From an uncultured Marinoscillum sp. (lineage in GTDB: Bacteria > Bacteroidota > Bacteroidia > Cytophagales > Cyclobacteriaceae), in the NCBI GenBank assembly GCA_964351885.1, contig CAYGPP010000001.1, positions 95,911 to 159,910 on the forward strand: 64,000 nucleotides of DNA, given 5' to 3'. A model generated the notes under the pieces. That model had not been told where the DNA came from. It worked only from the letters and a program-made list of their open reading frames with translations, and ran no database searches. The number at the start of each line of letters is the position of its first letter. Position 1 is the stretch's first letter. The position numbers and the translations under genes are program-made. Positions 259 through 64,000 of this stretch are shown here, in pieces.

Positions 259-1581
259 ATGAAAAAATTTGTGAATGCAATTACTTCAGCTTCGTGTATG
301 CTGGCGGTGGTTGCTATGGTTAGTTCTTGTGGGTCTTCATCCAATCCCACTAGTCAAAATCCAGGTGGTTATAGTACCGCTACTGGATTGGAGTTTAATG
401 AAGAAGGTGGTTTCGGGGTAAATGATTTCCGTGGACAGCCTGAAGGTCCGAATCTAATTTTTATTGAAGGAGGTCGTACCGTTCTTGGATCATTTGAAGA
501 GGATGTGCTCAATACTAATGATGGTATAGAAAGAGCTGTCACCGTTGCTTCATTTTATATGGACGAAACAGAAGTTGCTAACATCAACTGGTTAGAGTAC
601 GAATACTATATCAAGCAAGACTCAGACGAATATTACTGGAAGAACAACCTTCCTGATACTACGGTTTGGGCCAAAGACTTGGCTTACAATGACCCTTATG
701 TTGACCACTATTATCGTTACCCTGGTTTTAGGTATTTTCCTGTTGTAGGAGTTAACTGGAGACAAGCGGTGAACTATTGTCAGTGGAGAACGAGAGTTGT
801 AAATATCAAGCTCGCGGAAGATGCGGGTTATTATGACGAAGATACCTCTGAAGATGACGCTTTTGCCGGAGCAGAGGGAGAGCCCGCTTCTGCTGGAGAA
901 TTCAAAAGGATCCCTCTTGAAACTGGTGTTGTGCTACCAAATTATAGACTTCCTACCGAGGCTGAGTGGGAATATGCGGCCCAAGCGCTTATAGGAACAC
1001 AATGGTTAGATGAAAACCAAACACATAGAAGACTTTACCCTTGGGATGGTCATGCCTTAAGAAATCCTTATGGAAAAAGCATGGGTTATTTTTTAGCAAA
1101 CTTCAAAAGAGGAAAAGGTGATTACGCCGGTATTGCTGGAAAATTAAATGATGGTGCGATGATTCCTACTTATGTTTATGATTATCCACCAAATGATTTT
1201 GGTCTATACAATATGGCTGGAAATGTAAACGAGTGGGTTCAAGATGTTTATCGACCTTTGTCATTCCAAGATATAGATGATATGAACCCAGTAAGAAGAG
1301 ATGGGTCTTTAGATCTAGAAAGCGGATATGATGCGGCGTATAATTTCATTGGTAATGAAAATGAGTATACTGAAGAAGAGTGGCTTGCCAATACAGGTCT
1401 TCAGAAAAGCTACAACTCTGATAATCCTCCAAGAAAACGATTAAGAGTATATAAAGGTGGTTCTTGGGCTGATGTTGCTTACTGGATGTCTCCTGGAACA
1501 AGACGATTCCTTTTCGAAGATTCCGCTACATCAACAATTGGATTTAGATGTGCCATGATTAGAGCGGGTACTAACTATTAA
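259..1581 (+). CDS. gldJ: gliding-motility lipoprotein GldJ-like (FGE-sulfatase / SUMF1 fold)
   Basis: Lipoprotein signal peptide with lipobox (MVSSCGSS). N-terminal TGLEFNEEGGFGV...GPNLIFIEGG resembles GldJ more than GldK/PorK. FGE-fold motifs are present (RLPTEAEWEYAA, GNVNEWVQD, YKGGSW, GFRCA). Confidence 0.65.
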   Translation: MKKFVNAITSASCMLAVVAMVSSCGSSSNPTSQNPGGYSTATGLEFNEEGGFGVNDFRGQPEGPNLIFIEGGRTVLGSFEEDVLNTNDGIERAVTVASFYMDETEVANINWLEYEYYIKQDSDEYYWKNNLPDTTVWAKDLAYNDPYVDHYYRYPGFRYFPVVGVNWRQAVNYCQWRTRVVNIKLAEDAGYYDEDTSEDDAFAGAEGEPASAGEFKRIPLETGVVLPNYRLPTEAEWEYAAQALIGTQWLDENQTHRRLYPWDGHALRNPYGKSMGYFLANFKRGKGDYAGIAGKLNDGAMIPTYVYDYPPNDFGLYNMAGNVNEWVQDVYRPLSFQDIDDMNPVRRDGSLDLESGYDAAYNFIGNENEYTEEEWLANTGLQKSYNSDNPPRKRLRVYKGGSWADVAYWMSPGTRRFLFEDSATSTIGFRCAMIRAGTNY

Positions 1582-5700: not shown

Positions 5701-6078
5701 AATCAACCGGACCCGAGTGGGAAAGGACAAGGTAATGAAGAAGGAAGTAAGCTGAAAGAGGCAATCAAGAAGATGGAGGAAAATGAGGTTGATTTAGTGA
5801 ATAAGAGGTTAACACAACAACTCATCGATAGGCAACAACAAATACTCACCAGAATGCTCGAAGCAGAAGAATCAATGCGCAAACAAAAGGAGTCAGCAGA
5901 AAGAAAAGGAGAAACTGCGAACCAAAACATAGGTAAGTACCCTCCAGAGATCGAAAAATATCTGAAAGCAAAAGAAAAGGAAATAGAATTATTAAAAACT
6001 ATTCCCTTAGATTTAGAACCCTTTTACAAAAAAGAAGTTAACGATTACTTTAGACGTATAAGTCTTCCAAATGAATAG
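2755..6078 (+). CDS. DUF4175-like membrane-anchored protein with long E/K/Q-rich coiled-coil C-terminal half
   Basis: The N-terminus (FKRKHFLNLLIKGLLISVLFF... two TM helices ...IGRHFHEISDRLTNLVQL) is typical of Bacteroidetes DUF4175. About 550 aa of heptad-like charged sequence follow. Confidence 0.7.
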   Translation: MFDNQLQQNITKFKRKHFLNLLIKGLLISVLFFGAVFLISGVLEGYFWFNSSVRLGLLLGSSLILVYTLLRLVIIPLAAVLNLEKNLTDEKAANLIGRHFHEISDRLTNLVQLSQQSANENSLLSAALIQKSSELKKFRFSDAVNFKVNFKYLYYLIALALFIICISFINPSILSDGTSRILKYDKTFLRPVPFSFHLESNPYGFSGEPYELKARIEGNTIPELVYIVDGNTRLPAILSGRNISFKIPTLTKSKKITFEASNFSSPEYTIELYNRPEIQKLEIQINFPEYLNTKNPITSKSGNLTIPEGSKILWTVTSQYAESVFLTTPDSSFIMSHEERGIFAIHQTASESFSYALDLSNAKAQNAKPIEYAVTVIKDQYPEINAVFSLDSISYASVVIMGNIADDYGISGLNLHYKINSDSKYQTKAIPFTRGNNDQNFIYDWSLSGLFLNEEDEVTIYVSVFDNDRINGPKSSNSVRYLYKKPSSSQIEKEIDALSDQSQSALENSLKESELLREQIKNLELKLKNDQKVDWQEEKMLQKVLLNRKKLEDEIEELKKQSNLLNQTRKEFNKQSSDLQKKAQKLQDLINEVLDEETKKLYAELQELLKKEASSEEVLKQLDKIQSNEKNLENELERAIELFKRMKMETLLEQAAEKLNQLGERQEKLGSEEEKGDVSKALEQEKINESFEELNKDIEEAQDINKDLKSPEPIDELDSEREDIQKDLESLENELSLDNQDDNDQKKAKNNPDSDQKMKNAGQKMKILAGKMMQMQASAEMEMMQENMDNLRDILDNLIKLSFEQEDILTQIKQVSQLDPRFIELSQEQLDLTDNIEVIEDSLLALAGRVIQISSFVTRELSSINEHLEKTMFQLRERDKGRATSDQQFAMTSMNNLALLLEDVLEQMQMSMSEAMGKPQKGNKKGQSMPSMSEIQKQLSQQIQDLKKSGKQGRALSEELAKLAAEQSELRQSLEQMNEQLGNQPDPSGKGQGNEEGSKLKEAIKKMEENEVDLVNKRLTQQLIDRQQQILTRMLEAEESMRKQKESAERKGETANQNIGKYPPEIEKYLKAKEKEIELLKTIPLDLEPFYKKEVNDYFRRISLPNE

Positions 6079-37291: not shown

Positions 37292-37384
37292 TTTTCCTTT
37301 AGGCTTTTAGTCCTGATTGGGACATTGCTGATTGTCATATTAAACCTTTAATTTGATCTGCGTTAGATCAAACTAAAAACATTG

Positions 37385-38773
37385 ATGACTGCACTAACCA
37401 CGCTCCAAGAAATCCCTGAGTTTAAGAATGTACCCAAGTCGCAGCTGCAATGGCTACTAGATGAAGGAGAAATCAAGACTTATGATACTGGAGGGCTGAT
37501 ATTTCAGCCTGGAGATTCTATTGATTCTCTCATTATTATTCTGGAAGGTCAAGCCGTAATCAAAGCAAAGCAAGGCAATCAATTTAGAAAGGTGGCCACC
37601 CTAGAGAAATATGCCATCACCGGCAATTTGCCTTATTCGAGAGCAGACAAGGCTTTTGGTTATGCTGAGGTAACTAATTCCACTACAACGCTGATGTTAC
37701 CAAAAACTAAGTTTCGAGAGATGATTGTTGATAATGTAGAGCTGACTACAGCACTAGTACATACTATGAGTAGTAGGATAAGGGATTTCACAAAGTCACA
37801 ACAACAAAATGACAAGATGATGGCGCTTGGTAAGCTTTCCGCCGGGCTCGCACATGAACTTAATAATCCATCCGCCGCAATTTTAAGAAGTGCTCAAAAC
37901 CTCGGAAAGCATTTGAAGCAGATTCCGGAAGGGTTTAAAAAGGTGATAAAAATCACGATGACAGACGAGCAAGTGGATATTGCCAATAAGATTTTGTTTG
38001 ATAAAATGTCTTCAGAGAAGCCTAAGTTGAGCATGATGGAGAAGTCATCTCTAGAAGATGAACTGCTTGATTGGTTAGAGGAGAACGAAATTGAAGATGC
38101 CGAAGAGGTTGCAGAAAACCTTGCTGCCTTTGGTTTTGACATGGACGATATGGATAAGATCGCTACTCAAGTACAGTCGAAGGATTTGCAGCCAGTCATT
38201 CATTGGTTCAACCAAATGCTTGTCACGGATAGTTTGGTTGATGAAATTAAGGATGCTTCGCAGCGAATTAATACGCTAGTCACTTCCGTGAAAAGCTATA
38301 CCCATATGGATCAGGCTCCAGAGAAAAAGGCAACTGATGTGCATATTGGACTTGACAACACCTTGGCAATGCTCAACCATAAAATCAAAAAGAATCAAAT
38401 CAAGGTTCGAAAGGAATTTGATTTCGAAATAGCTAAACCGTGCATATTGGTAAGTGAAATGAATCAAGTTTGGACGAATGTTATCGATAATGCCATTGAT
38501 GCAATGGAAGAATCAGAAACCAAGGAACTAACGATTCGAACAGTTCAGGACGGTCAGTTCGTAAATGTTTTCATAGCAGATTCAGGCTCTGGAATCCCCG
38601 AGTCTGCACAAGGAAAGGTTTTTGATCCATTCTTTACTACAAAATCAATTGGTCAAGGAACAGGTCTGGGAATGGAGGTTGTCCATCAGATTGTTACACA
38701 GCACAATGGTTCAATCACTTTTGAAACTGAGCCGGGAAAAACAGAATTCAAAATTTGCATTCCTATCAAATAA
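37385..38773 (+). CDS. cyclic-nucleotide-binding domain sensor histidine kinase
   Basis: N-terminal cNMP-binding beta-roll (aa ~20-130), H-box LSAGLAHELNNPSAA, N-box NVIDNAIDA, G1 ADSGSGI, G2 GTGLGM. ATG 37385 preferred over TTG 37382. Confidence 0.85.
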   Translation: MTALTTLQEIPEFKNVPKSQLQWLLDEGEIKTYDTGGLIFQPGDSIDSLIIILEGQAVIKAKQGNQFRKVATLEKYAITGNLPYSRADKAFGYAEVTNSTTTLMLPKTKFREMIVDNVELTTALVHTMSSRIRDFTKSQQQNDKMMALGKLSAGLAHELNNPSAAILRSAQNLGKHLKQIPEGFKKVIKITMTDEQVDIANKILFDKMSSEKPKLSMMEKSSLEDELLDWLEENEIEDAEEVAENLAAFGFDMDDMDKIATQVQSKDLQPVIHWFNQMLVTDSLVDEIKDASQRINTLVTSVKSYTHMDQAPEKKATDVHIGLDNTLAMLNHKIKKNQIKVRKEFDFEIAKPCILVSEMNQVWTNVIDNAIDAMEESETKELTIRTVQDGQFVNVFIADSGSGIPESAQGKVFDPFFTTKSIGQGTGLGMEVVHQIVTQHNGSITFETEPGKTEFKICIPIK

Positions 38774-38776
38774 GTT

Positions 38777-40438
38777 ATGAAAAAGCCAATCATATTTCTA
38801 ATCGATGATGATCCTGCTGTACTCAAAGCGGTCACCAGAGATATCAGATCGGAGTACAGAAGTAATTATAAAATACTAGCAACTGAGTCTGCTAAAGAAG
38901 GGTTAGAAGCTCTCAGAGATTTGAAGAATAAAGGCGATGTTGTGGCTCTTTTTATCTCAGACCAGAAGATGCCAGAGATGCTTGGAGTAGAGTTTTTGGA
39001 GCAAGCCAAAACATTTTACCCTGAGGCTAAAAGAATATTATTGACAGCCTACTCTGATACCGACGCTGCAATCAAAGCAATCAATGATGTGCAACTTGAT
39101 TATTATCTCATGAAGCCTTGGGATCCGCCAGAGGAGAAGCTTTATCCTGTGATCAATGATCAATTAGATGAGTGGCAGAATAATTACCGACCAGAATTCG
39201 AAGGGATAAAAATTATCGGTTTTCAATGGTCGCCAAAATCTCATCATATCAAGGATTTCCTATCCGGAAACTTGATTCCATATCAATGGCTGGATATAGA
39301 AAGTTCAGAAGAGGCAGATCAACTTACCCAAATCAATGCGATTGAGCGTGCGGATCTTCCTGTCGTATTCTTTGAAGATGGCAGCTATCTTAAGAACCCT
39401 ACGCTTACGGAAATAGGGAATAAAACAGGGATGAATGTTCAGGCGAAGCAAAAAATGTACGATGTTGCCATCATTGGTGCAGGACCAGCAGGGTTAGCAT
39501 CAGCTGTATATGGAGGATCGGAAGGGCTCAATACCTTGCTAATCGAAAAGAGAGCTCCAGGAGGACAGGCTGGAACTAGCTCGAGGATTGAGAATTATCT
39601 CGGTTTCCCAAAAGGACTTAGCGGCGCAGAATTATCTCATCGAGCAATAACTCAAGCAACTCGTTTTGGTATTGAGTTTTTATCTCCTCAAGAAGTTGAG
39701 AAACTAGAGGTGAGGGATAATTATAAGATTTTAACGCTGAAAGACGGGTCTGTTATTAACACCAAAAGTGTGATTGTCACAACGGGCGTGGACTACCGCA
39801 AGCACCCAGCGAAAGGGATAGACGATTTTACCGGTGCGGGTATCTACTATGGCGCTGCGACGACCGAAGCGGGAGCATGTAAGGGTGAAGATGTATACAT
39901 GGTAGGAGGAGGGAATAGTGCCGGTCAGGCAGCCATGTATCTTTCAAAGTTTGCCAAGAATGTATATATCGTGGTTCGCAAACCTGATTTGTCCTCTAGT
40001 ATGTCTCAATATTTGATCGACCAGATTGCTAATACGGACAATATCCATGTGCTCGGTCACACGGAGCTGGTGGAGGTTTTGGGAGAAGACAGGCTTCATT
40101 TCATTGAATTGCAAGACACTCATAGCAAAGAGGTCAAGAAGGTTCCTGCGGCAGCACTATTTATTTTCATTGGGGCAAAACCAATCACGGACTGGCTGCA
40201 ATTATCTTTATTGAAAGATCCAAGAGGCTTTTTGGAGACAGGGAACTCGTTAACCAAGTACGATAATTTCAAAAAAGTATGGAAGCTTGATCGTGAGCCA
40301 TTTTTATTGGAGACCTGTATTCCAGGAATTTTTGCTGCTGGGGATGTAAGAGCCGGCGCTATGAATCGGGTGGCATCAGCAGTGGGAGAAGGTAGCATGG
40401 CTATCAAATTTGTACATGAATATTTAGCAGAAAACTAA
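38777..40438 (+). CDS. fused response regulator (REC) / glutaredoxin-like / thioredoxin-reductase-like flavoprotein
   Basis: REC domain with DD and phospho-acceptor D62 (LFISDQKMP). FAD motif AIIGAGPAGL, NAD(P)H motif MVGGGNSAG, GIFAAGDV. Confidence 0.85.
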   Translation: MKKPIIFLIDDDPAVLKAVTRDIRSEYRSNYKILATESAKEGLEALRDLKNKGDVVALFISDQKMPEMLGVEFLEQAKTFYPEAKRILLTAYSDTDAAIKAINDVQLDYYLMKPWDPPEEKLYPVINDQLDEWQNNYRPEFEGIKIIGFQWSPKSHHIKDFLSGNLIPYQWLDIESSEEADQLTQINAIERADLPVVFFEDGSYLKNPTLTEIGNKTGMNVQAKQKMYDVAIIGAGPAGLASAVYGGSEGLNTLLIEKRAPGGQAGTSSRIENYLGFPKGLSGAELSHRAITQATRFGIEFLSPQEVEKLEVRDNYKILTLKDGSVINTKSVIVTTGVDYRKHPAKGIDDFTGAGIYYGAATTEAGACKGEDVYMVGGGNSAGQAAMYLSKFAKNVYIVVRKPDLSSSMSQYLIDQIANTDNIHVLGHTELVEVLGEDRLHFIELQDTHSKEVKKVPAAALFIFIGAKPITDWLQLSLLKDPRGFLETGNSLTKYDNFKKVWKLDREPFLLETCIPGIFAAGDVRAGAMNRVASAVGEGSMAIKFVHEYLAEN

Positions 40439-51970: not shown

Positions 51971-53338
51971 TTAGATCAAAGGTAAATCAATCTCAAAACA
52001 AGCTCCTTTTGGCTTGTGCAGATATGAGAGATCTCCATCATGCTTTTTTATGATTCCATAGGAAATGTAAAGTCCCAGCCCTGTGCCCCGACCTTCTTCT
52101 TTGGTCGTAAAGAAAGGCTCAAATATGTGATGTCTATGCTTTTGAGCCACGCCTTTGCCATTGTCAATAATTATTATTTTTACACGTGTTGCGGTGTTGG
52201 ATACCGTCACCTTAATCTTTGGATTCTTTACTTTTTTGACTGCTTCAGTTGCATTATTTAGAAGGTTAAGGAGTACTTGATTGATCTCCGTATGGTTAGC
52301 AAGGCAGACAGATTCTTCTTTGCTATCAAATGAAATAGAGATCTGCGGGAATGCATTTTCTATTAGTAAACATGTTCGTTTTGTCAACTCACTTACATCT
52401 ACTTCCGTAAGGTCTTGCTGCCTATTCTTGGGCGAAATCCTTAATAGGTTATTGATTACATCCGTTGACCTTTGGGAACCTTCTTTTATGTTCTCCAATA
52501 ACCTAGATGCTTCTTCTATGGACGGCTGAAGTTGTTCGTATTGTTTTGCAGTGAGGTGTTCTTTGATTTCGGCAAGGTCATTTTGTATTGGCACCACACT
52601 TCCACTGATGAAATTAAGAGGATTGTTCAATTCGTGCGCTAAGCCGGCAGTGAGACGACCAAGGGTTGCCATTTTTTCTGATTCTACCAGTTTTACTTGA
52701 GTTGAGCTCAGCTTTTCGATGTAGTCCTCTTTTTCACTTATCGTAGTTTTCAGTGCATAATTTAGCTCATTGAGCCTGTTATTCTGTTGCTCTCTTTTAG
52801 AGCGCTCACTATCAAACTCCACTTTCATTAGATAGGCAAGGCTAAGTGTACTCAGAGAAAAAAGCACGTAATTTAAAGGCACGGCAGCTGGAGGATATTC
52901 ACCAGTTTCAATGATGCCTGAACTTTGGAGAACAGTGAGAATGACGATTTCGAGGGGAATTACACTTGCGTAAATAAGCCGGTTCTTTACTGGTGCAATG
53001 AAGATTATCACAAGCCCTATTGCCAAGGCGATTACTGATAGAAGTCCAGAATAACCACCAAGGGATACCCAGAAAAACACAATGGCGGTCATCATGAATA
53101 GGATAATCGGAATTCTTAGCGGATTAAATATTCCTCTGTATCTAGATAAGTAGAAAAAGAGAAGTCCGATAGCGGAAACGACTATATCAGCCAGAATTAT
53201 CCAAGAAAAACCAAATAGAATAATGTCTTGGATGATCAAACAGAGGAGAAGCACACACTGGATGATACAGAGATATTCGAATAGCTTTTTTTCAAGATTA
53301 GGCAATTCGGCAGACGGTTCTGTGCTCTGATTTGTCAT
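51971..53338 (-). CDS. multi-pass membrane sensor histidine kinase (orphan), paralogue A
   Basis: About 5-6 hydrophobic helices, a coiled coil, H-box LTAGLAHELNNPLNF, N-box LLNNATEA, G1 IIDNGKGV, G2 GTGLGL. Confidence 0.8.
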   Translation of the reverse strand: MTNQSTEPSAELPNLEKKLFEYLCIIQCVLLLCLIIQDIILFGFSWIILADIVVSAIGLLFFYLSRYRGIFNPLRIPIILFMMTAIVFFWVSLGGYSGLLSVIALAIGLVIIFIAPVKNRLIYASVIPLEIVILTVLQSSGIIETGEYPPAAVPLNYVLFSLSTLSLAYLMKVEFDSERSKREQQNNRLNELNYALKTTISEKEDYIEKLSSTQVKLVESEKMATLGRLTAGLAHELNNPLNFISGSVVPIQNDLAEIKEHLTAKQYEQLQPSIEEASRLLENIKEGSQRSTDVINNLLRISPKNRQQDLTEVDVSELTKRTCLLIENAFPQISISFDSKEESVCLANHTEINQVLLNLLNNATEAVKKVKNPKIKVTVSNTATRVKIIIIDNGKGVAQKHRHHIFEPFFTTKEEGRGTGLGLYISYGIIKKHDGDLSYLHKPKGACFEIDLPLI

Positions 53339-53452
53339 ATCAAAAGTGAAGCGTATTTTTTGGAATGATTAAATTATTTAATAAACCCATAAAACGGAAT
53401 CTTTTCTATTATTCATAAAGATCAGCCTAACTAACATCACATCATTTAACCG

Positions 53453-54826
53453 TTATCCCTTAGGGAAGACCAGCTTAAAGCTGGATAGGTTATTCTGTCT
53501 GGAATATGTGATGCTCCCACTGTGTTTGACGATTATACTATAGACGAAATATAGTCCAAGTCCGAGGTGTTTGCTGCTATCCTTTGTGGTAAAAAAGGGT
53601 TCATACATTTTGGTAGCAATATGCTCTTCTACTGGGGAACCATTGTTTGAAATTTCAAGAGCTATGTATTCATTTTCATTGGACAAGTTAATTTCTACCT
53701 TGGGATCTGATAATTCGCTGGTGGCATCTGTGGCATTTTCCAGCAGGTAATTGAATGCTTGACGTACTTCCAGTATTCTCCCAATGATGAAGATGTTTTG
53801 ATTGATGTTATTCTTTACTTCGATTTTTGGAAACAACTTTTTGAATTGCTTGATATCTTCGATTACAGAGATTGAAAGGTTGAATTTCTTATAATCTGAA
53901 AAATCGCGTTGAGGTGAAATCTTGACGAGATTGGCGATTACGTTTGAAATTTTTGAAGAACCCTCTGACATGTTTTTGAGTAGAAGTTCCGTTTCTTCAA
54001 AAGAATCCAAAATTTCTTTCGGAGTGTCTTTGTCAATTGTTTTTTTAATCTCCTTCAGGTTATTGGTAATTGGCATGATTCCACCAGACACATAGTTTAG
54101 TGGGTTGTTAAGCTCGTGTGCCAACCCTGCCGTAATACGCCCTACAGAGGCCATTTTTTCAGACTGGATTAATTGATCCTTGGTTGTATTTAGGTTTTCG
54201 ATCACCCTTTGTAATTCCTCATTCGTATCGTTGAGTTTGTCATTGAGGGACTCGAGATCATTGTTTTGTTCGAATAGCAGTGTTCTATCATTGTCATACT
54301 GCGCCTTGACATAGTAGCTAATAAACAATGTCAAAAATGTCAATATGGTGAAGTTAAGTGGGCGGAAATCTTTATCTGCGAAGGAAAGATCAATGAGTTC
54401 TGGGTGGGTGGATTGAATGTAGGTCAGCAAAGCCAATAATGACAAAAAAAGGATGAGCAAGTGGAATTTATATTTTTTAGGTCCAATGACAATGACCATA
54501 ATTCCAATCATTGTGCTTGCAACAGACATGTTGCTTTTGTACCCACCTATGCTAAACCAGAAGTAGATAAATGCGGTTATCAACAGGAAGATAAGTGGAA
54601 GCCGCACATAATTGAAAAATCCTTTTTTAGAAAGAATGAAAAAACTGAGGCCAAGGAATGAGAAGATTAACTCTGCAATGGTAATTTGAACTTTACCACC
54701 TGTATTTAAGGAGGCTTGAATAGCTAAATAAGCGGCAAGAATGAAAACGATCAGACAGACATATTCGAAAAGGCGCTTCTCCAAATACTTATATCCTGCA
54801 TAATTGTTTTTTGACAGACTTTCCAC
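53453..54826 (-). CDS. multi-pass membrane sensor histidine kinase paralogue B with degenerate G1 box
   Basis: Same architecture and the shared N-terminal block LEK[KR]LFEY[LV]C. H-box ITAGLAHELNNPLNY. G1 reads ISNNGSP instead of DxGxG. G2 reads HLGLGL. Confidence 0.75.
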   Translation of the reverse strand: MESLSKNNYAGYKYLEKRLFEYVCLIVFILAAYLAIQASLNTGGKVQITIAELIFSFLGLSFFILSKKGFFNYVRLPLIFLLITAFIYFWFSIGGYKSNMSVASTMIGIMVIVIGPKKYKFHLLILFLSLLALLTYIQSTHPELIDLSFADKDFRPLNFTILTFLTLFISYYVKAQYDNDRTLLFEQNNDLESLNDKLNDTNEELQRVIENLNTTKDQLIQSEKMASVGRITAGLAHELNNPLNYVSGGIMPITNNLKEIKKTIDKDTPKEILDSFEETELLLKNMSEGSSKISNVIANLVKISPQRDFSDYKKFNLSISVIEDIKQFKKLFPKIEVKNNINQNIFIIGRILEVRQAFNYLLENATDATSELSDPKVEINLSNENEYIALEISNNGSPVEEHIATKMYEPFFTTKDSSKHLGLGLYFVYSIIVKHSGSITYSRQNNLSSFKLVFPKG

Positions 54827-54925: not shown

Positions 54926-57900
54926 TTAAATCCCCACCATGACAAATGCTCCCCAGTAATATGGAGACTTCCACTTGTCTTTCAATCTTTTTTGAGCGAT
55001 AATGAAAGCCTCTTGCTTAGTTTTTCCGCTTAACCATTCTTCGTAGAATATGGTCATTAGTTCCTGAGTAGCATCATCATCAACAGTCCACATGGACATA
55101 ATGATAGCATCTGCGCCAGCTACTTGGAAGGCTCTTTGGAGACCATAAACACCTTCACCGTTTTTCACTTCTCCGAGACCTGTTTCGCAAGCAGAAAGGA
55201 CAACAAGTTCGGTATTACTAAGGTCTAGGTTCATGGCTTCAAAAGCCGTGAGAATACCATCTTCATTGTGCTTGATATCGTCAGAGATGACTCCTTCGGC
55301 AATGTAACTGTTGGCTCCAGCTAAGATAAGCCCAGATCTAAGAAGAGGATTCTGAACATAGGAGTCTTTACCTCCTTCGTGCTCATCGTCTGACTCCAAA
55401 AAGAAACCATGGGTGGCAATGTGAAGTGTCTTAGGGCTATGTACCATCTTGATACTATCTTCTAGTGCATCATTGCTGAGATATTTCGTAACTGAGGTAC
55501 TTGCGTTAGCAAATAAGCTATCAATAAGGTTTACTTCTTTTTTAGTACCCGGTAACAATGAAAGCATTTGATTGGATCTCATATACCTCAACATATTTCC
55601 TCTGATGCCTCTAGGAAGTGAACCAGCATTTGCAAGTTCACCCAAGTCACCTTCTGCTCCTCTCGCTCCACGTACGCCTCTTTCTCCACCTCTGCTGATA
55701 CTTCTACCATCCGCCGCTGCTTTTACGATTTCTGAAGCTTCGGTACCAGATTCTTCTGCTTTACTATCGATGACTCCCATGTTGTAATTAGGGTACCCGA
55801 ATAAGAATGACTTGTCCTGAAGACTTTTATTTGTGTTGTTGAACGCCACCAAGTCTTTGGTATTAGTGACCAATTGAATTTCTAATTCGTCCAACGTGAA
55901 GTTTCCTGTTGCTGGATTTCTGAGTGTATAAATACTGACTTGATTGAAAACGCCATCAGGAGATAAATAGACCTTATTAATTCCGCCAAGCTTGTTAGCT
56001 ATTGGTCTCCAGAAAAGGCGATATGAAAAGTCTTCATCGATTTTGTATTTGATGGCGTTGCGGTAGTTAGAGAGGTATTTTGACTCCATCAACTTACCGT
56101 TTTTCATCAAGACCATTTCGGGATATTCTTCCGTTTTATCAGTTACGATGAGTGCGGCGTAATAAACCTCATCTGTAAACACCCCTGCAGAATCGGGAGA
56201 AAAGTCTCTGAAACGGATGATTTCTACTGCAGCTTCGCCGGGCTTAAGTTTGGCTTGAATATCCTTCCACGTTAGCTTTCTAGCCGTTGCGTTTTCCGCG
56301 AATACAGCAGACCCCTTACTTAACTCTTTTTCAATGGCATTTGAAGAAACATTTAGTTCTTCAATTTCCTTATTTCTTTCTTCCGCCGGAATTTCGGAAG
56401 CACTAAACAGCTTTGCCAATCTTTCTTTTTGGGAGATCCACAAGTTATATTTTGCAATCAATGTAGAGTCCTTACTATTTAGAATTGCATCTTTAACTTT
56501 ATTACTGGCATATAGGATTAGCCCTTTTGTTGCCAACTGATAATCGTACATATCTCCGAGAAGCGCTTTATTTTCAGAGCTAGTTTCAACAATAAAAGAG
56601 TTGTATTGCTCAAAGCTTGGACGAAGATTGTTGTAATAGAATTTTGACTTTTCATCTTCACTTAAAATTGGGAAGACCATGTTGATCTGATCAAAGTAGT
56701 TATCGAAAGTCTCTCTGTAGAATTTCAATGCCTCGGAGTACTTTTCTTTTTTCCAGTTAAGAATGGCCAACTTATTGGTGCTGAGGGCATATTCGGAATG
56801 ATTCTTACCAACCGATTTTTTACGCAACTCAAGAGCCTTGCTATGATAGACTTCAGCTTTTTCTAAATCCCCTTGAGTTAGTAAGGCATCTCCCAAGAAG
56901 TAATTTGAGTACGCCATTTCCTTTTCATTATCTTTCGCTGACACATCTGCAAGCTGAGTTGCTTTGATACCGTAACTAACTGCTTTATTTAGCTCACGAG
57001 TCGCAGTATAAACAGCAGTGAGGTTTTGGAATACTCTCGTATAGTAGAGGCTTTCTGTTCCAAATTCTGTTTCAAATATTCCTGCAGCTAGATTGAAGTA
57101 TTCCTGAGCTTTTTCATATTCCTGAGCTTTCCTGTAATTAACGGCGAGGTTATAAACGTCCAAAGCATAAGCGAATGATTGCTTGCCGTAGAACTCTTCA
57201 TCCCAAGCTAAGTTTTCCAGATAGATTTTTTCCGCTAATTCATAGTTCCCTAAAAAGTGATAAATACTTGCTAGATTTCCTTTTAAGAGAACTTCGTACT
57301 CATCATATATTCCCTCTGTCATTCTGCTCAAAATAGATATTGCCTCTTGATAGATTTCTTCTGCAACAGGGTATTTACCTATTTGGGTGTAAAGACCTGC
57401 GAGACTATTCAGAAAGGAAACATATTCTACCGAGGCATACTCCCCATTTTCTTTCTGTATTGCTAGAGCTTCTAGTAAAGCTTTTTCAGATTTCTTATTT
57501 GATCCAGATATTTGATAGAAGTCCCCTTGGAACCTATATAGGAGGGCCTCATTTGTACTTCTCTTTTCTACATTTTTTCCTAGCTTATCAGCCAATTTCA
57601 ATCCTTTTTCATACTCCTCAGTGAATACATAATGATCAAGTAGTGATGAGGCGGAAACAAAATAGTCTTCGCTCTTAATACCAGAAAGGTCTGCTTCAAT
57701 GCCTAGGAGCTGTAAGTATAGATCCTCCGTTTTGGCATAATAACCGAGTTCATCTTGAATATATCCGAGGTTGAAAATAAGATTTCGAATGTCTTCGCCT
57801 TGCTGTCCCAACTCTGTTCTGAGAGCATATTCTTTTTCATAGAAATCAAGACTTGTGGTTAGATCGTTTTCCCAATACAAGTACGCTTCACCTAAGAAGC

Positions 57901-58117
57901 CATGCATCAAAGCTCCTAGCGTATCTTTTTTGCCGAGGAACATCGTAGTGATGTCTCCTTCGCTTTTCAGAATTTTGTCATAATCCCCATATTCGTAGTA
58001 CTCCTCAAGCTTGAGGTATAGCTTCTCAGCCTTCTTACTTTCAAATTCGTATTGTTGTGCACTCGTGGTTCCTGCGCATATCAAAATGAGGAGAATACCT
58101 GTCAGACGTATATTCAT
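54926..58117 (-). CDS. signal-peptide-bearing TPR-repeat CHAT (caspase-like protease) domain protein
   Basis: Signal peptide MNIRLTGILLILICAGTTSAQQ. About 450 aa of TPR repeats. The C-terminal CHAT domain keeps His (LHIATHGFF, codon 55409-55411) and Cys (VVLSACETG, codon 55187-55189). Confidence 0.85.
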   Translation of the reverse strand: MNIRLTGILLILICAGTTSAQQYEFESKKAEKLYLKLEEYYEYGDYDKILKSEGDITTMFLGKKDTLGALMHGFLGEAYLYWENDLTTSLDFYEKEYALRTELGQQGEDIRNLIFNLGYIQDELGYYAKTEDLYLQLLGIEADLSGIKSEDYFVSASSLLDHYVFTEEYEKGLKLADKLGKNVEKRSTNEALLYRFQGDFYQISGSNKKSEKALLEALAIQKENGEYASVEYVSFLNSLAGLYTQIGKYPVAEEIYQEAISILSRMTEGIYDEYEVLLKGNLASIYHFLGNYELAEKIYLENLAWDEEFYGKQSFAYALDVYNLAVNYRKAQEYEKAQEYFNLAAGIFETEFGTESLYYTRVFQNLTAVYTATRELNKAVSYGIKATQLADVSAKDNEKEMAYSNYFLGDALLTQGDLEKAEVYHSKALELRKKSVGKNHSEYALSTNKLAILNWKKEKYSEALKFYRETFDNYFDQINMVFPILSEDEKSKFYYNNLRPSFEQYNSFIVETSSENKALLGDMYDYQLATKGLILYASNKVKDAILNSKDSTLIAKYNLWISQKERLAKLFSASEIPAEERNKEIEELNVSSNAIEKELSKGSAVFAENATARKLTWKDIQAKLKPGEAAVEIIRFRDFSPDSAGVFTDEVYYAALIVTDKTEEYPEMVLMKNGKLMESKYLSNYRNAIKYKIDEDFSYRLFWRPIANKLGGINKVYLSPDGVFNQVSIYTLRNPATGNFTLDELEIQLVTNTKDLVAFNNTNKSLQDKSFLFGYPNYNMGVIDSKAEESGTEASEIVKAAADGRSISRGGERGVRGARGAEGDLGELANAGSLPRGIRGNMLRYMRSNQMLSLLPGTKKEVNLIDSLFANASTSVTKYLSNDALEDSIKMVHSPKTLHIATHGFFLESDDEHEGGKDSYVQNPLLRSGLILAGANSYIAEGVISDDIKHNEDGILTAFEAMNLDLSNTELVVLSACETGLGEVKNGEGVYGLQRAFQVAGADAIIMSMWTVDDDATQELMTIFYEEWLSGKTKQEAFIIAQKRLKDKWKSPYYWGAFVMVGI

Positions 58118-58619
58118 GGCAAACTGGAATTTTTTAATAGAAAATATAAATTAACTAATATTTTTTGAAGCAAACAAATTTTGCTTCAAGGGTAATTTAA
58201 CACCAATTATTGCTGAAAGTGTAAAATCTTGTTGGTTGACACCACGATACCAGGGTTTGATCTGTGGAATTTTTCTACTCTAAAGTGATGATTCTAAAAA
58301 TTGGGAAAGGACATAGCAAGAGGAGGGAGAGATAAAATTTTCATGGGAAAATGCACTTTGGGGCATGGGTGGCTCTGATCAATGGAGATAGACATGAGCG
58401 TTAGGGGTTTGGTATGACACACCAAAGGAAGCTATTGGAAGGCCCTTTTTTGTCTAACGATGATAGACATTTCGACGAACGTATGAAATAACCCTTTTAA
58501 AATATCATTTTTTTAAGGCTAGCTAAAAGGAATCATTTACTTTTATAGGTTGATATTATGCGCTGATACGAAACTAAAACAGTTAATGTATTGGCAATCA
58601 CCGCTATAACCAACCGCTG

Positions 58620-61600
58620 ATGAAGAATTTTACCCTTAAAAATTTCACAAGACTTACAATCTTATTTGCTTTTCTCTTCACCTCACTCGATCATTTTGGT
58701 CAAAATAGTGCCCTTGATCTTGATGGATCGAATGACAATGTCCAGTTTGGAAATATAGGTTCAATGTCAGCTTTCACTATAGAATCATGGGTTTACTGGC
58801 AAGGAGGGGACGCGAACAATGATCGCCTCCTTGGAGCTGCAAATGGGAATGTTTCATGGGAGATCAATGGTAGCAATGGCGGGATGCATGTTATTTTCAG
58901 TGAATTTCCCTATGGACGCGTGACCGCTGCGACCACAGGAATTTTTGAAACAAATACCTGGGTACATGTGGCCCTCATCTATTCGGGAGGAACAACGATT
59001 GGCATTTATAAGAACGGGTCCTTGATAGAAACACTGACAGGTGTTCCCAATGCCTCGTCAATTTCCAATTATACTACATGGTATTTAGGAGCAGATGGAG
59101 ACGGTACCCCTTCAGAATGTATCAATGCAGTTATCGATGAGTTCAAGATTTGGAACGTGGACCGATCTGGAGTAATAGGTGCTGAATACAACAAAACTGT
59201 TGCGAGCCCTTCAAGTGAATCTAATTTGTTGGTTTATTACAATTTTGATGAGAATACAGGAGTTACTGTAAATGATCTAGCGACAGCTGGCGGTGGCACC
59301 AATGATGGAACGATCAAAGATCTAAATGCTGATCACGGTACTCCACCATGGGTAAGTTCGACTGCTCCTGTTGATTTGAACTTCGCCCTAGATTTTGATG
59401 GTGTGGATGACGATGTAAATGTTGGCGATAACATTGAAGGCTTATCTGCTTTAACTATGGAGGCGTGGGTTTATTACACAGAGACTTCTGCGGTGTATAA
59501 TGAGATTTTTTCAAAAGATGTTGTCAATTCATGGGGCATAGACCCAAGCCATAAAATGTGGTTCCACATAGGAGATGGTAGCTCTTGGACAGGTTCGGGG
59601 GTTGCCTCGATATCTTCCATTCCGCAAAACACTTGGACACATGTAGCTGTCACTTGGGATGGCAGCACTGCCAAAATGTACATTAACGGGAGTTTGGATC
59701 ATACGGTCGCCCATGTAGCAACAATGGGAGTAAATGCATTGGATCGAGCTATAGGGAATTATGGGAGCTCAAATTCCAACCCATTCCAAGGGAGTATTGA
59801 TGAACTGAGGGCATGGGATGTGGTTCGAACAGAATCTCAGATTCAAGCTTTTAAAGATGTAGAGTTGAGTGGAGGAGAACCTAATTTGCTAGCTTATTAC
59901 CCGTTTAGCGAAGGAGCAGGAACAACTACAGACAATGCAGAGGGACTTGCTGGGCTTGACGGCACTTTAGGTGTAAGTATGGATAATTCGGATTGGATTA
60001 CAGCTACACATGGTGTTGCCTTGGCAGGTGTTCTTGACACCACCCCTCCAACTGTTTCGAGCATTACCGGACCTGTTTCTACCACGAGTGATTCTCCTTT
60101 CCAGATTACATTGACCTTTTCAGAAGCGGTAACCAATCTTGACATTTCTGATTTGGCTGTGAGTAACGGAACTCCTTCCAATTTGCTTACTGGCGACAAC
60201 ATTTCATGGACAGCTGACATTACCCCAACAATTGACGGAAGTGTGACTGTCGACTTGGGTATCGGAACTTTTACTGATATAACAGGAAATGCCAACATTA
60301 GTCCAGCATCACAATATGCGGTGACTTATTTAGCTATTGATCCATTCATCACCACATGGGAAACTACCACGGCAAGTGAGTCTGTTACTATTCCAACTTT
60401 TACAGGAGAGACCTATAACTATACGGTGGACTGGGGTGACGGTAATTCCGAAGCAGTAACTACTGATGTATCCCCATCACATGTTTATACTACCGCAGGG
60501 ACATATACGGTCTCTATTACAGGTGACTTCCCAAGAATAAACTTCAATAATTCAGGAGACAAAGACAAAATACAGACCATTGAGCAATGGGGAGATATAG
60601 CATGGACAAGTATGGAAAATGCATTTCGTGGATGTACTAACCTAACCTATAACGCCATTGACGCACCTGACTTATCTAGTTTAACTAGTTTGTATGGTAT
60701 GTTTTATTTGTGTACTAGTTTCAATGGAAACATAAATAATTGGGATGTAAGTAATGTATCCGATATGGATAGGATGTTTATCGGGGCGAGCGCATTTAAT
60801 CAACCATTGAATTCTTGGATAACAAGCAGTTTGCAAGTAACACGTTTTATGTTTAGTGGTGCTTCTGCCTTCAATCAAGACATTAGCAACTTCCAGATGG
60901 GTGGAGTACTATTTGCCAATAGTATGTTTGAAAATGCCACTTCATTTAATCAAGATATAAGTGGGTGGGATGTCTCTAGTATGTCAGCAATGAATATCAT
61001 GTTCAATGGCGCTACCGCTTTTGATCAGAATTTGGGCAATTGGGATATTTCATCTTCAGGAAGCCAAATGTCGCTTAATAACACCGCACTTTCTGTTGCC
61101 AACTATGATGCAACATTGATTGGTTGGGCAGATGACAATGGAGCTACGGAGACCATTCCAACTGGTGTCACATTGGGAGCCACAGGACTTACTTTCTCTT
61201 CTGTAGGACAAGCTGCACGTTCTACCTTGATTAATACTTATGGATGGACTATAAATGGGGATTCCAAATTAGATTATGCCTTAGATTTCAACGGCTCTGG
61301 GCAATATTTATCTACAACTAAGACTACTTTAAACACAGAGTTTACAGCAGAAGCCTGGGTTTACTTGAATACATTAACACCGTCCTCTACAGGCCCGGCC
61401 ACAGTAATCAGTAAATGGGGAGGGACTAATCGTGACTTTGTGCTTTCTTATACAGATAATAGCACTTTTTATGCTCAGGTTTTAAATGATGTTACAGATG
61501 CAAATTTGACTGTTACATCTTCAACAATACCCACCATTAATACATGGTATCACTTGGCCTTTACTTTTGATGGTTCCAACCTGAAGCTTTATGTAAATGG

Positions 61601-64000
61601 TGTAGAAGAGGATACACAATCAGGAACTGATGTTTTTGATGTTACTGCCTCAAGTATACGAGTTGGGAGTACCGAAAACGGTGATTCTGACTGGGCAGGT
61701 CAGCTAGATGAAATTAGAGTTTGGGATGTCGCCAGATCAGCTGCTCAGATTAGTGCTTTTAAAGATGTAGAGTTGAACGGCACAGAGCCGGATCTTTCGC
61801 TTTATTATAATTTCGCTGATGGCTCTGGAGATGATATCATTCCTGACTTGGCGACCAATGATGGCGCTCAGGATGGTGATATGAGCACCATGGACAATGC
61901 TACCGATTATGTGTTAGCAACTCACGGTGTAGGAGCTCCGGGGGTATTGGATGTCACTGATCCAACTGTTACAATCACCAGCACGGAATCCAGCACTACA
62001 ACACTAAGTCCATTCTCAATCACCTTTACATTTGATGAAGAGGTAGTTGGCTGGAAGGTAGAAGACGTAGCGATTATCAACGGGACTTTGACCAACTCCT
62101 TTACCAGTGACAATATTACTTTTACCGCAGATGTCTATCCCACGCTGGATGGAGATGTAAGCATTTTCGTTGAGGTAGGGCATGTTACTGATTTGACAGG
62201 CAATGAAAATGCTGCTTCTAGTCCTTTTGTGATTGACGCTAGTCTCCCTCAAAATGCTTTGGATTTTGACGGGGTGAATGATTATGTAGAGATACCAACA
62301 TTTGAACTGGTTACGGATCAATTCACATTCGAGGCTTGGATCAATACAAACTCTAATTTTACAAGAATTTATTCTCAACAGGAGGTGTCAGCCCTTCCAG
62401 AGTTAGGACTTTGGTTTCAAGGACCAAATTTCTTAGAGTTTGGAACCTCTACTTCAAATGGATATGTATCGGTACAACATGAAATAGATATTACTAATGA
62501 CTTTATTAATCAATGGGTACATGTAGCTGCTGTCTATGACGGGTCAAATATTACATTGTATATCGATGGTCAATTAGCAGCTCAAAATATACAGACGGGT
62601 AATCTTGTTTATGGTAGCACTACCAGTGCGTATTTAGGCGCTAATGCTTTTACCGCTGGAGGAAGCAGCTTTTTTAATGGCAAAATGGATGAAGTCGCGA
62701 TCTGGAATGTTGCCAGAACTCAGACAGAAATCCAATCTGATGCTTACGGTGGGATTTCTTCTGCCGATCCAAACCTGTATCAGTATTTTGGCTTTAACCA
62801 AGGCATTTCAGAAGGCTCGAACGCTTCTATTGATTTACTTATTGACCGAGGTGGAAGTGATCTACACGGTACATTATCTGGTCCATTTAGTCTTACTGGA
62901 AGTAGCTCGAACTGGGTAGCCTCTGGCGCACAAGCCCCAACAGCTTACCAAGCCACTGATGCTTCTATCAATGGCTTCACCGCCAATTGGTCAGCCATAC
63001 CAAATGCACAAACTGTTACTATTGACATTGACGATAATGCAGATTTCTTAAGTCCTTTTGCAACAAACGTTTCCGTATCCAACCCGACAGGCAGTTCATA
63101 CTTCGTAGCGCAAGACCTTTCTTCTTATCCGAATCAAAAATTATATTTTGCGCTTGGTTACGATGGCGGGAATTTTACCCAGGGCGAGTTTATGGTTACA
63201 CCGGGGAATGCACTAGAGTTTAATGGCACGACTGATTATATAGATGTTGGTAACGTAATGAATACCAGCTATACCAAGGAGGTGTGGCTACTCTTACCGG
63301 ATGCCAACGGCCTTGATAACAATATCATATCTGGTGGCTCAACGGGCAACCATGCACTATTCGCCCCGTCAGCGTACAATTATCAATTATCCTCAGGACA
63401 TGGTGGAGGGTTCAACGCTGTGCAGGACCCAGATCCAATGCCTTTTGGCGTTTGGCAACATGTAGCGGTGACTTACGATGCGGTCTCAGATGTAATGACC
63501 CTTTATCGCAACGGTATACAAGTAGATCAAGCAAGTTCTGTTGCTGATTATACAGGGGGCAACTTTGTGTCCATTGGTGCTCATAATAGCATCAGCTGGT
63601 GGGGAGGCCAAATGGATGAGATCAGAGTATGGTCGGATGTTCGTATTCCTTCAGAAATTCAAAGTAATCTTTACAACACACTGACTGGGCAGGAAGAAGA
63701 TTTACTATTCTACTATCGATTTGACGAGACTTCTGGTACCCTCGTTGAAGACTTATCGCCTAACAACAATGATGGCACGACTTCAGGATTCAGCGGAGAT
63801 GAGTGGACGGCATCTGGTGCAATGGCTCCAACAATCTACCAAGCTACTGATGCTTCTATCAATGGCTTCACCGCCAATTGGTCAGCCATACCAAATGCAC
63901 AAACTGTTACTATTGACATTGACGATAATGCAGATTTCTTAAGTCCTTTTGCTACAAACATTTCCGTATCCAACCCTACGGACAGTTCATTCTTCGTGGC
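58620..64000 (+). CDS. giant secreted multi-domain surface protein, 5' partial (LamG x5 or more, Ig-like x2, BspA/DUF285 repeats, Fn3-like units); continues beyond the window
   Basis: ATG 58620 followed by at least 1793 in-frame codons with no stop to the window end. Codon phase was checked at about ten anchor positions, and the track lists no stop-bounded + ORF in this frame. Signal peptide MKNFTLKNFTRLTILFAFLFTSLDHFGQ. LamG hallmarks are LDLDGSNDNV, LDFDGVDDDV, LDFNGSGQYL, LDFDGVNDYV, LEFNGTTDYI, each followed by W[VT]HVA and DE[FLIV].[IAV]W. DUF285-type NxxIxxWDVSxV repeats lie at 60640-61080. Confidence 0.85.
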   Translation, partial: MKNFTLKNFTRLTILFAFLFTSLDHFGQNSALDLDGSNDNVQFGNIGSMSAFTIESWVYWQGGDANNDRLLGAANGNVSWEINGSNGGMHVIFSEFPYGRVTAATTGIFETNTWVHVALIYSGGTTIGIYKNGSLIETLTGVPNASSISNYTTWYLGADGDGTPSECINAVIDEFKIWNVDRSGVIGAEYNKTVASPSSESNLLVYYNFDENTGVTVNDLATAGGGTNDGTIKDLNADHGTPPWVSSTAPVDLNFALDFDGVDDDVNVGDNIEGLSALTMEAWVYYTETSAVYNEIFSKDVVNSWGIDPSHKMWFHIGDGSSWTGSGVASISSIPQNTWTHVAVTWDGSTAKMYINGSLDHTVAHVATMGVNALDRAIGNYGSSNSNPFQGSIDELRAWDVVRTESQIQAFKDVELSGGEPNLLAYYPFSEGAGTTTDNAEGLAGLDGTLGVSMDNSDWITATHGVALAGVLDTTPPTVSSITGPVSTTSDSPFQITLTFSEAVTNLDISDLAVSNGTPSNLLTGDNISWTADITPTIDGSVTVDLGIGTFTDITGNANISPASQYAVTYLAIDPFITTWETTTASESVTIPTFTGETYNYTVDWGDGNSEAVTTDVSPSHVYTTAGTYTVSITGDFPRINFNNSGDKDKIQTIEQWGDIAWTSMENAFRGCTNLTYNAIDAPDLSSLTSLYGMFYLCTSFNGNINNWDVSNVSDMDRMFIGASAFNQPLNSWITSSLQVTRFMFSGASAFNQDISNFQMGGVLFANSMFENATSFNQDISGWDVSSMSAMNIMFNGATAFDQNLGNWDISSSGSQMSLNNTALSVANYDATLIGWADDNGATETIPTGVTLGATGLTFSSVGQAARSTLINTYGWTINGDSKLDYALDFNGSGQYLSTTKTTLNTEFTAEAWVYLNTLTPSSTGPATVISKWGGTNRDFVLSYTDNSTFYAQVLNDVTDANLTVTSSTIPTINTWYHLAFTFDGSNLKLYVNGVEEDTQSGTDVFDVTASSIRVGSTENGDSDWAGQLDEIRVWDVARSAAQISAFKDVELNGTEPDLSLYYNFADGSGDDIIPDLATNDGAQDGDMSTMDNATDYVLATHGVGAPGVLDVTDPTVTITSTESSTTTLSPFSITFTFDEEVVGWKVEDVAIINGTLTNSFTSDNITFTADVYPTLDGDVSIFVEVGHVTDLTGNENAASSPFVIDASLPQNALDFDGVNDYVEIPTFELVTDQFTFEAWINTNSNFTRIYSQQEVSALPELGLWFQGPNFLEFGTSTSNGYVSVQHEIDITNDFINQWVHVAAVYDGSNITLYIDGQLAAQNIQTGNLVYGSTTSAYLGANAFTAGGSSFFNGKMDEVAIWNVARTQTEIQSDAYGGISSADPNLYQYFGFNQGISEGSNASIDLLIDRGGSDLHGTLSGPFSLTGSSSNWVASGAQAPTAYQATDASINGFTANWSAIPNAQTVTIDIDDNADFLSPFATNVSVSNPTGSSYFVAQDLSSYPNQKLYFALGYDGGNFTQGEFMVTPGNALEFNGTTDYIDVGNVMNTSYTKEVWLLLPDANGLDNNIISGGSTGNHALFAPSAYNYQLSSGHGGGFNAVQDPDPMPFGVWQHVAVTYDAVSDVMTLYRNGIQVDQASSVADYTGGNFVSIGAHNSISWWGGQMDEIRVWSDVRIPSEIQSNLYNTLTGQEEDLLFYYRFDETSGTLVEDLSPNNNDGTTSGFSGDEWTASGAMAPTIYQATDASINGFTANWSAIPNAQTVTIDIDDNADFLSPFATNISVSNPTDSSFFV
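62955..63952 (+). repeat. intragenic tandem module duplication (891-bp period) with 107-nt perfect identity
   Basis: 62955-63061 is identical base-for-base to 63846-63952 (ACTGATGCTTCTATCAATGGCTTCACCGCC...AGTCCTTTTGC). Flanking bases are about 80-90% identical. The offset of 891 nt equals 297 codons. Confidence 0.9.

Follow-up and report, generated by a model that had tools for sequence, protein, structure and literature searches.

The stretch considered here, 64,000 nucleotides from an uncultured Marinoscillum sp. (the window in what follows), ends in the 5′ part of a giant gene for a predicted secreted multidomain protein (58620..64000, plus strand; 1,793 codons), recognized from its open frame, from its first ATG after a stop at 58584 and from Pfam matches. 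The gene is oriented divergently from that of a predicted secreted TPR-CHAT caspase-like protease of 1,063 amino acids (aa) at 54926..58117 on the minus strand, and the two have in common an intergenic region of 502 nt (58118..58619).

The open frame and its modules

Translation of 58620-64000 on the plus strand gave 1,793 codons with no stop. The remaining five frames held 77-154 stops each, and over 300 shuffles of the same sequence the longest open run was 84 codons on average and 169 at most. The nearest upstream in-frame stop is at 58584-58586 and the first start codon beyond it is the ATG at 58620, so that the open frame of at least 1,793 codons from this ATG to base 64000, reported in a preliminary description of the window, is confirmed. 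Readings of the gene as a pseudogene or as an assembly artefact were rejected because the frame is uninterrupted. Its G+C content (0.41-0.43) is on par with the remainder of the window. The accompanying track of open reading frames (ORFs) lists only 59897..60298 (minus), 62016..62378 (minus) and 62644..62919 (plus) within this span. By its own description the ORF lister skips ORFs extending past the source sequence, and the giant gene is missing from the track because its frame runs off the end of the window, as the preliminary description had supposed in attributing the gap to a loss of frames not bounded by a stop. In one of the related genomes compared below (L074, 1-9591, minus strand) the gene caller of the public collection recorded no gene at a frame open for more than 3,197 codons, so that giant genes get lost there too and not only in the ORF track of the window. 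The lesson for annotation is that genes of this kind vanish without notice from stop-bounded ORF lists and from some gene catalogues.

The order of modules was worked out with hidden Markov models (HMMs) built on the protein's own modules and with Pfam searches of single segments, and all modules lie on the plus strand. A predicted signal peptide (aa 1-27) is followed by two LamG modules, the first at 58722..59174 (aa 38-185 by its own HMM; Laminin_G_3, 66.2 bits when scanned alone) and the second at 59406..59843 (aa 263-408 by its own HMM; Laminin_G_3, 86.9 bits alone; 67% identity to a LamG of L076), and by a first Big_12 Ig-like domain at 60036..60311 (aa 473-564 by Pfam, and found by its own HMM). 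A PKD-like module (60330..60539, aa 571-640; PKD_4 at 28.2 bits against a cut-off of 27, with a PDB sequence match to the PKD region of ColH) then leads into a DUF285/PARCEL-repeat block of leucine-rich, solenoid-type repeats (60540..61229, aa 641-870). Beyond the block there are LamG module 3 (61302..61751, aa 895-1044 by its own HMM; 102.8 bits alone), a second Big_12 Ig-like domain (61950..62210, aa 1111-1197; 59.6 bits alone), LamG module 4 (62268..62735, aa 1217-1372, the best Laminin_G_3 stretch), a divergent Fn3 module a (62895..63179, aa 1426-1520), LamG module 5 (63180..63785, aa 1521-1722), which is of an unusually conserved subtype, and Fn3 module b (63786..64000, aa 1723-1793), a direct repeat of Fn3 module a that opens the next Fn3-LamG unit and is cut by the end of the window.

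Over the whole product, Pfam assigned 389 bits to Laminin_G_3 (PF13385) in five stretches, 156 bits to DUF285 and 97.2 bits to Big_12 (PF19078) in two stretches, with a weak PKD match. The scores of LamG modules 1, 2 and 3 re-scanned alone compare with a family cut-off of 27.6 bits, and the LamG fold was also confirmed by a structure model and a PDB search. The order LamG-LamG-Ig-DUF285-LamG-Ig-LamG-(Fn3-like-LamG) given in the preliminary description, with its Ig domains and at least five LamG modules, was verified module by module, and the PKD-like module was added to it before DUF285. Two of its labels held in part. The block it had called BspA/DUF285 is secure as DUF285/PARCEL, with 166.3 bits in two stretches when scanned alone against a cut-off of 25 for DUF285 (PF03382). 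The BspA part did not stand, as Pfam matched neither LRR_5 (BspA-type) nor any other leucine-rich-repeat family besides DUF285, either at E<=0.01 with the whole protein or at E<=1 with the block alone. The NCBIfam PARCEL models remained below their curated cut-offs (TIGR02167, 26.4 against 30 bits; NF045896, 90.7 against 500 bits). Similarly, the Fn3-like-LamG units at the 3′ end are present by a profile of homologous units and by a structure model but not by a direct Pfam match, for neither Fn3 copy of the window matched any Pfam family at E<=1, and the Fn3 assignment was made on the profile and the predicted structure. Ten of 15 aligned homologous units matched fn3 (PF00041; best 1.7e-8), the profile of these units matched titin Fn3 (1.3e-33) and fibronectin Fn3 (9.7e-12) in the PDB, and an AlphaFold model of a window Fn3 module (predicted local distance difference test, pLDDT, 79) has seven strands and Fn3 folds as its top PDB matches.

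Pairwise identity among the five visible LamG modules is just 25-34%. Fn3 modules a and b share 87% aa and 91% nt identity, and a 191-nt direct repeat (62919-63109 and 63810-64000, 91% identity) extends over the Fn3 modules of the adjoining units. From the likeness of the two copies it is suggested that near-identical tandem Fn3-LamG units may continue past base 64000. Tandem units as similar as these are a likely trouble spot for assembly.

Positional orthologs, predicted export and proposed surface display

Nine genomes were compared, namely the window and eight related Cyclobacteriaceae (Marinoscillum, Ekhidna and metagenome-assembled genomes (MAGs): L001, L074 and L076-L081), and a positional ortholog was defined as a giant gene divergent from an orthologous CHAT gene. 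Complete positional orthologs encode 3,278-9,122 aa, the largest being that of L080 (9,122 aa), which contains a PKD-like and DUF285 cassette as in the window; the others are those of L077 (Marinoscillum; 6,270 aa, complete), L081 (3,926 aa; LamG, Por_Secre_tail) and L079 (Ekhidna; 596 + 3,278 aa; LamG, DUF285, Por_Secre_tail). The remaining genomes provided lower bounds: more than 5,889 codons, still open, in L001 (LamG, Big_12, eight Fn3-LamG units, then TIG, FG-GAP propellers and Big_5), more than 3,197 codons in L074, at least 5,101 aa in L076 and at least 2,562 aa in M. furvescens (L078). Given these sizes, the window probably shows about one fifth to one half of its giant gene. In L079 (7876-7881) the 3,278-aa gene starts with GTG 4 nt after the 596-aa LamG gene, and the appearance is of a single gene (about 3,875 codons) that a stop has divided, or of a sequencing error.

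Module order and content of the giant gene differ in each of the nine genomes. In L074, L076, L077 and L078 identity to the window is 77-83% for PolA and 62-81% for CHAT; for the giant gene the best local alignment with these four gave 29-43%, or 67% across one LamG, and residues 1-2,562 of the M. furvescens protein had no match at all to the window protein. The PKD-like and DUF285 cassette is present in just three of the nine positional orthologs, and its identity between the window and L080 is 58% and 48% (PKD-like and DUF285). Such reshuffling of module content is what diversifying pressure on a surface protein would lead one to expect. LamG module 5 has 86% aa identity to aa 2041-2240 of L001, compared with 30-35% for other LamG modules and 48% for CHAT, and its identity at third codon positions is 63.5%. 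At conserved residues 66% of its codons are identical, against 51% in the conserved CHAT C-terminus. This points mostly to strong purifying selection acting on one binding module in particular, and the codon data are suggestive, not decisive, of recent lateral transfer or module exchange. A fixed slot beside a conserved, predicted secreted CHAT gene, occupied by a gene of 3,300 to 9,100 codons with modules that are reshuffled from genome to genome, provides a natural system for studying the evolution of modular adhesins.

The N-terminus of the giant protein shows a positive n-region, a 12-residue hydrophobic core and then G|Q, and a Sec signal peptide of aa 1-27 (MKNFTLKNFTRLTILFAFLFTSLDHFG; 58620..58700, plus strand) is predicted from inspection, with Gln28 as the mature N-terminus. 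All eight positional orthologs have the same pattern, a signal peptide then [GA]-Q, which bears out the signal peptide claimed in the preliminary description. The conserved junction is consistent with the Bacteroidetes Q-rule, by which Gln follows the signal-peptide cleavage site (PMC5837995, PMC10653852). At the other end of the protein, both positional orthologs with a recorded C-terminal domain (CTD), L079 and L081, terminate in Por_Secre_tail, the type A sorting domain of the T9SS (type IX secretion system). A T9SS CTD (Por_Secre_tail or CHU_C) ends seven of ten complete giant relatives (ORFs of 3,600-6,000 aa), PF18962 or PF13585 is present in about 47 of 120 listed homologs by hand count, and among still longer relatives P0389 (7,357 aa) terminates in Por_Secre_tail and P0506 (7,764 aa) in CHU_C. 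To judge from its positional orthologs, the window gene would carry a sorting domain of its own at a C-terminus that lies beyond the window. The genome carries gldJ, as had been noted beforehand, which gives the gene a context of gliding/T9SS-associated machinery (259..1581, plus strand; TIGR03530 GldJ_short, 579.6 bits against a cut-off of 382.9). This gldJ is of the short form and also scores on GldK/PorK, as expected for the family. It is the only component of the T9SS/gliding machinery visible in the window, core porK/L/M/N and sov falling outside the available sequence.

We consider it likely, in agreement with the preliminary description, that the window contains the 5′ portion of a giant modular surface adhesin exported by the T9SS. 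The protein would first leave the cytoplasm by Sec export through its N-terminal signal peptide, with cleavage before Gln28, would then be exported by the T9SS through a C-terminal domain beyond the window, and would finally stay displayed at the cell surface, an elongated adhesin of beads-on-a-string form (for the logic of T9SS cargo see the reviews PMC12618676 and PMC10202324). Binding surfaces would be provided by the diverse LamG modules together with the DUF285/PARCEL block, and rigid spacers by the Big_12, PKD-like and Fn3 modules. With so little resemblance to each other, the LamG modules probably present several distinct sites for binding glycans or proteins. Some observations weigh against a surface adhesin of this kind. 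Three of the ten complete giant relatives (L004, L057, L065) end without a recognised CTD, the CTD-bearing orthologs have only 27-49% local identity to the window gene and another module order, and the -3 residue of the signal peptide placed by eye is His, which is atypical. The ligands of LamG folds include proteins in addition to glycans.

A more specific alternative is that the protein is a mobile gliding adhesin like SprB, with a type B CTD and a PorP/SprF-like anchor, propelled over the cell surface to drive gliding (background in PMC8986121 and PMC9143113). Its giant size is on the scale of SprB, gldJ lies within the window, and CHU_C of type B ends some giant LamG relatives (L055, P0506). 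More generally SprB and RemA of Flavobacterium johnsoniae are, like the window protein as we predict it, giant repetitive cell-surface proteins of a gliding bacterium exported by the T9SS. SprB, however, has a type B CTD, an SprF partner and another repeat type, whereas the two positional orthologs with a recorded C-terminal domain are of type A, and no locus listing showed an SprF/PorP-like gene beside the pair, so that we regard propulsion of this kind as very unlikely for the window protein.

A further possibility concerns the LamG modules themselves, which could be the carbohydrate-binding accessories of a secreted polysaccharide-degrading enzyme with its catalytic domain beyond the window. 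LamG_3 belongs to the concanavalin-A-like lectin/glucanase superfamily, and the structural neighbours of the Fn3-LamG unit include a sugar-binding and a lectin domain. A model of the unit (pLDDT 74.9) had as its best PDB match, spanning both domains, 4dqa, the putative carbohydrate-binding protein BACOVA_03559 of Bacteroides ovatus (E 3.5e-12, 341 aligned columns), and as its next matches LamG folds of PAPP-A, pentraxin, domain 4 of AbnA, i.e. the sugar-binding domain of an arabinanase of glycoside hydrolase family 43 (GH43), and the trans-sialidase lectin domain. The resemblance to BACOVA_03559 is limited to 19% identity and a template modelling (TM) score of 0.44-0.49, and that protein, itself only putatively ligand-binding, is a single 349-aa unit and not a giant array. 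Against an enzyme, neither the 1,793 aa visible here nor the 5,889 aa of L001 nor the Pfam matches listed for the positional orthologs contained a glycoside hydrolase, lyase or esterase family or anything else catalytic, and we hold this possibility to be highly improbable.

The surface adhesin proposed here belongs to a very common kind in the Bacteroidota, and its description beforehand as the least ordinary gene of the window was an overstatement. The last 1,200 residues of the protein match 110,769 cluster representatives at E<=0.001, and at NCBI the routine name for proteins of this sort is "LamG-like jellyroll fold domain-containing protein". Combinations of LamG, DUF285 and a T9SS CTD are already in the databases (P0002, P0026, L079). 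An exhaustive HMMER search returned mostly multi-DUF285 proteins, together with complete giants having type A and type B CTDs; the closest match in a scan of metagenome proteins was 30-36% identical, and the tail of the L001 ortholog, used as a query for a C-terminal fragment, matched mostly generic FG-GAP/VCBS proteins. Closest in kind are the LamG jellyroll T9SS cargo proteins of Bacteroidota (P0001 from a Cyclobacteriaceae MAG; Ekhidna algicida, PMC12998431), which are from the same bacterial family and likewise giant, with a signal peptide, many Laminin_G_3 modules and Ig/Fn3 spacers, and of which the complete relatives feature Por_Secre_tail; the LamG-domain T9SS proteins of Ekhidna have been read as adhesion-related (PMC12998431). 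The window copy differs from these in its PKD-like and DUF285 cassette, in a module order unique to its genome and in being known here without its C-terminus. Its 230-aa block (aa 641-870, DUF285 at 166 bits) recalls the DUF285/PARCEL proteins of Mycoplasma and Listeria and the BspA-type adhesins, and DUF285-family proteins in Mycoplasma have been described as surface or secreted (PMC8707762). Unlike in those proteins, the block is one cassette within a LamG giant, with LRR_5 unmatched and the PARCEL models below cut-off. The gene adds one more giant LamG-rich surface protein to those of a marine or freshwater Bacteroidota lineage, with attachment to particles, algae or polysaccharides as their probable role. 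What is unusual about it is its constant pairing with CHAT.

The divergent CHAT gene

The neighbouring gene had been described as divergent and as encoding a TPR-CHAT protease, and this proved correct: its product scored 194.5 bits against a CHAT cut-off of 24, with 123 bits for TPR_12, and retains the catalytic motifs HIATHG and LSACET. Its N-terminus in the window copy is a signal peptide ending in TSA|QQ. There were about 2,200 CHAT homologs at E<=1e-30; Marinoscillum, Ekhidna and other Cyclobacteriaceae are the sources of the best 120, most of them about 1,060 aa long. Among 112 CHAT orthologs, the His and Cys motifs are present in 105 and a signal-peptide-like N-terminus in 108. A defence role against phage was considered for the locus and set aside, as PADLOC assigned no defence system; it gave a generic TPR match for CHAT and nothing for the giant gene.

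CHAT and a giant LamG-rich gene are divergently paired in all nine genomes, with CHAT identity of 47-81% over its full length, and even as the modules of the giant gene differ in each. Adjacency of CHAT to PolA, by comparison, is kept in only six of the nine, and L001, L076 and L079 retain the CHAT-giant pair alone in otherwise different neighbourhoods. In the unrelated L054, too, a CHAT gene stands beside a gene for a LamG protein. At the level of gene order, this pairing hints at a functional link. The more frequent conservation of the pair than of the PolA adjacency, the predicted secretion of CHAT and its intact His/Cys dyad together invite a hypothesis patterned on LapG and LapA (bioRxiv 10.1101/198937, PMC6890996), namely that the giant protein is the adhesin half of a two-gene module in which the divergent secreted TPR-CHAT protease would process, release or quality-control it. 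This would be an addition to the reading as a T9SS-exported surface adhesin, not a replacement of it. The parallel with Pseudomonas fluorescens is one of logic only, a giant surface adhesin gene accompanied by the gene of an extracytoplasmic cysteine protease; LapA is a repeats-in-toxin (RTX) adhesin of a type I secretion system, LapG is transglutaminase-like and controlled by LapD and cyclic di-GMP, and neither has homology to the window pair.

Inherited synteny within one family is, however, a sufficient alternative account of the pairing. Giant LamG genes with no CHAT neighbour also occur (L082 and most loci of the set that includes L054), and the giant relative with a type A CTD, P0389, is not adjacent to CHAT. 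The top-ranked literature on CHAT combined with T9SS, gliding or Bacteroidetes terms was silent on CHAT domains. The two-gene module is therefore offered as a tentative addition that we think rather doubtful for the window pair. Its wider form, by which in Cyclobacteriaceae and relatives the CHAT protease would act on a hypervariable giant T9SS adhesin in maturation, shedding or quality control, appears to us unlikely. If it were true, T9SS cargo would have its first described protease-adhesin control pair, and an extracytoplasmic bacterial CHAT protease a first physiological substrate; a functional pairing would also give a handle on the role of such proteases.

The intergenic region bears on the same question. 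A block of about 45 nt abutting the CHAT ATG (about 58128-58180) is nearly invariant across five related genomes, and is followed by an 8-bp inverted repeat, in the window GAAGCAAA at 58167-58174 and TTTGCTTC at 58180-58187. Block and repeat are probably a promoter or leader of CHAT, or an operator. On the giant-gene side, in contrast, the compared genomes have no conserved element, which counts against a two-gene module. Scans of the intergenic region for sigma-70-type promoters and for terminators did no better than with shuffled sequence, the window's intergenic region lacks the Bacteroidetes TAnnTTTG motif, and an Rfam scan of this region returned no family, just a snoRNA match at chance level.

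Other genes in the window

At 51971-54826 on the minus strand, two histidine kinase genes, of 455 and 457 aa, stand in tandem with no adjacent response regulator, at a place where L074, L077 and L078 have one such gene. A 1,107-aa protein encoded at 2755-6078 (plus strand) matched no family and consists of N-terminal membrane segments and a long coiled coil rich in Glu, Lys and Gln, which accounts for the AT skew of 0.33 at 4001-6000. At 37382-40438 (plus strand) a histidine kinase gene precedes a gene whose 553-aa product joins a response-regulator receiver domain to a glutaredoxin-like segment and a thioredoxin-reductase domain, a fusion that is unusual as the redox output of a two-component system.

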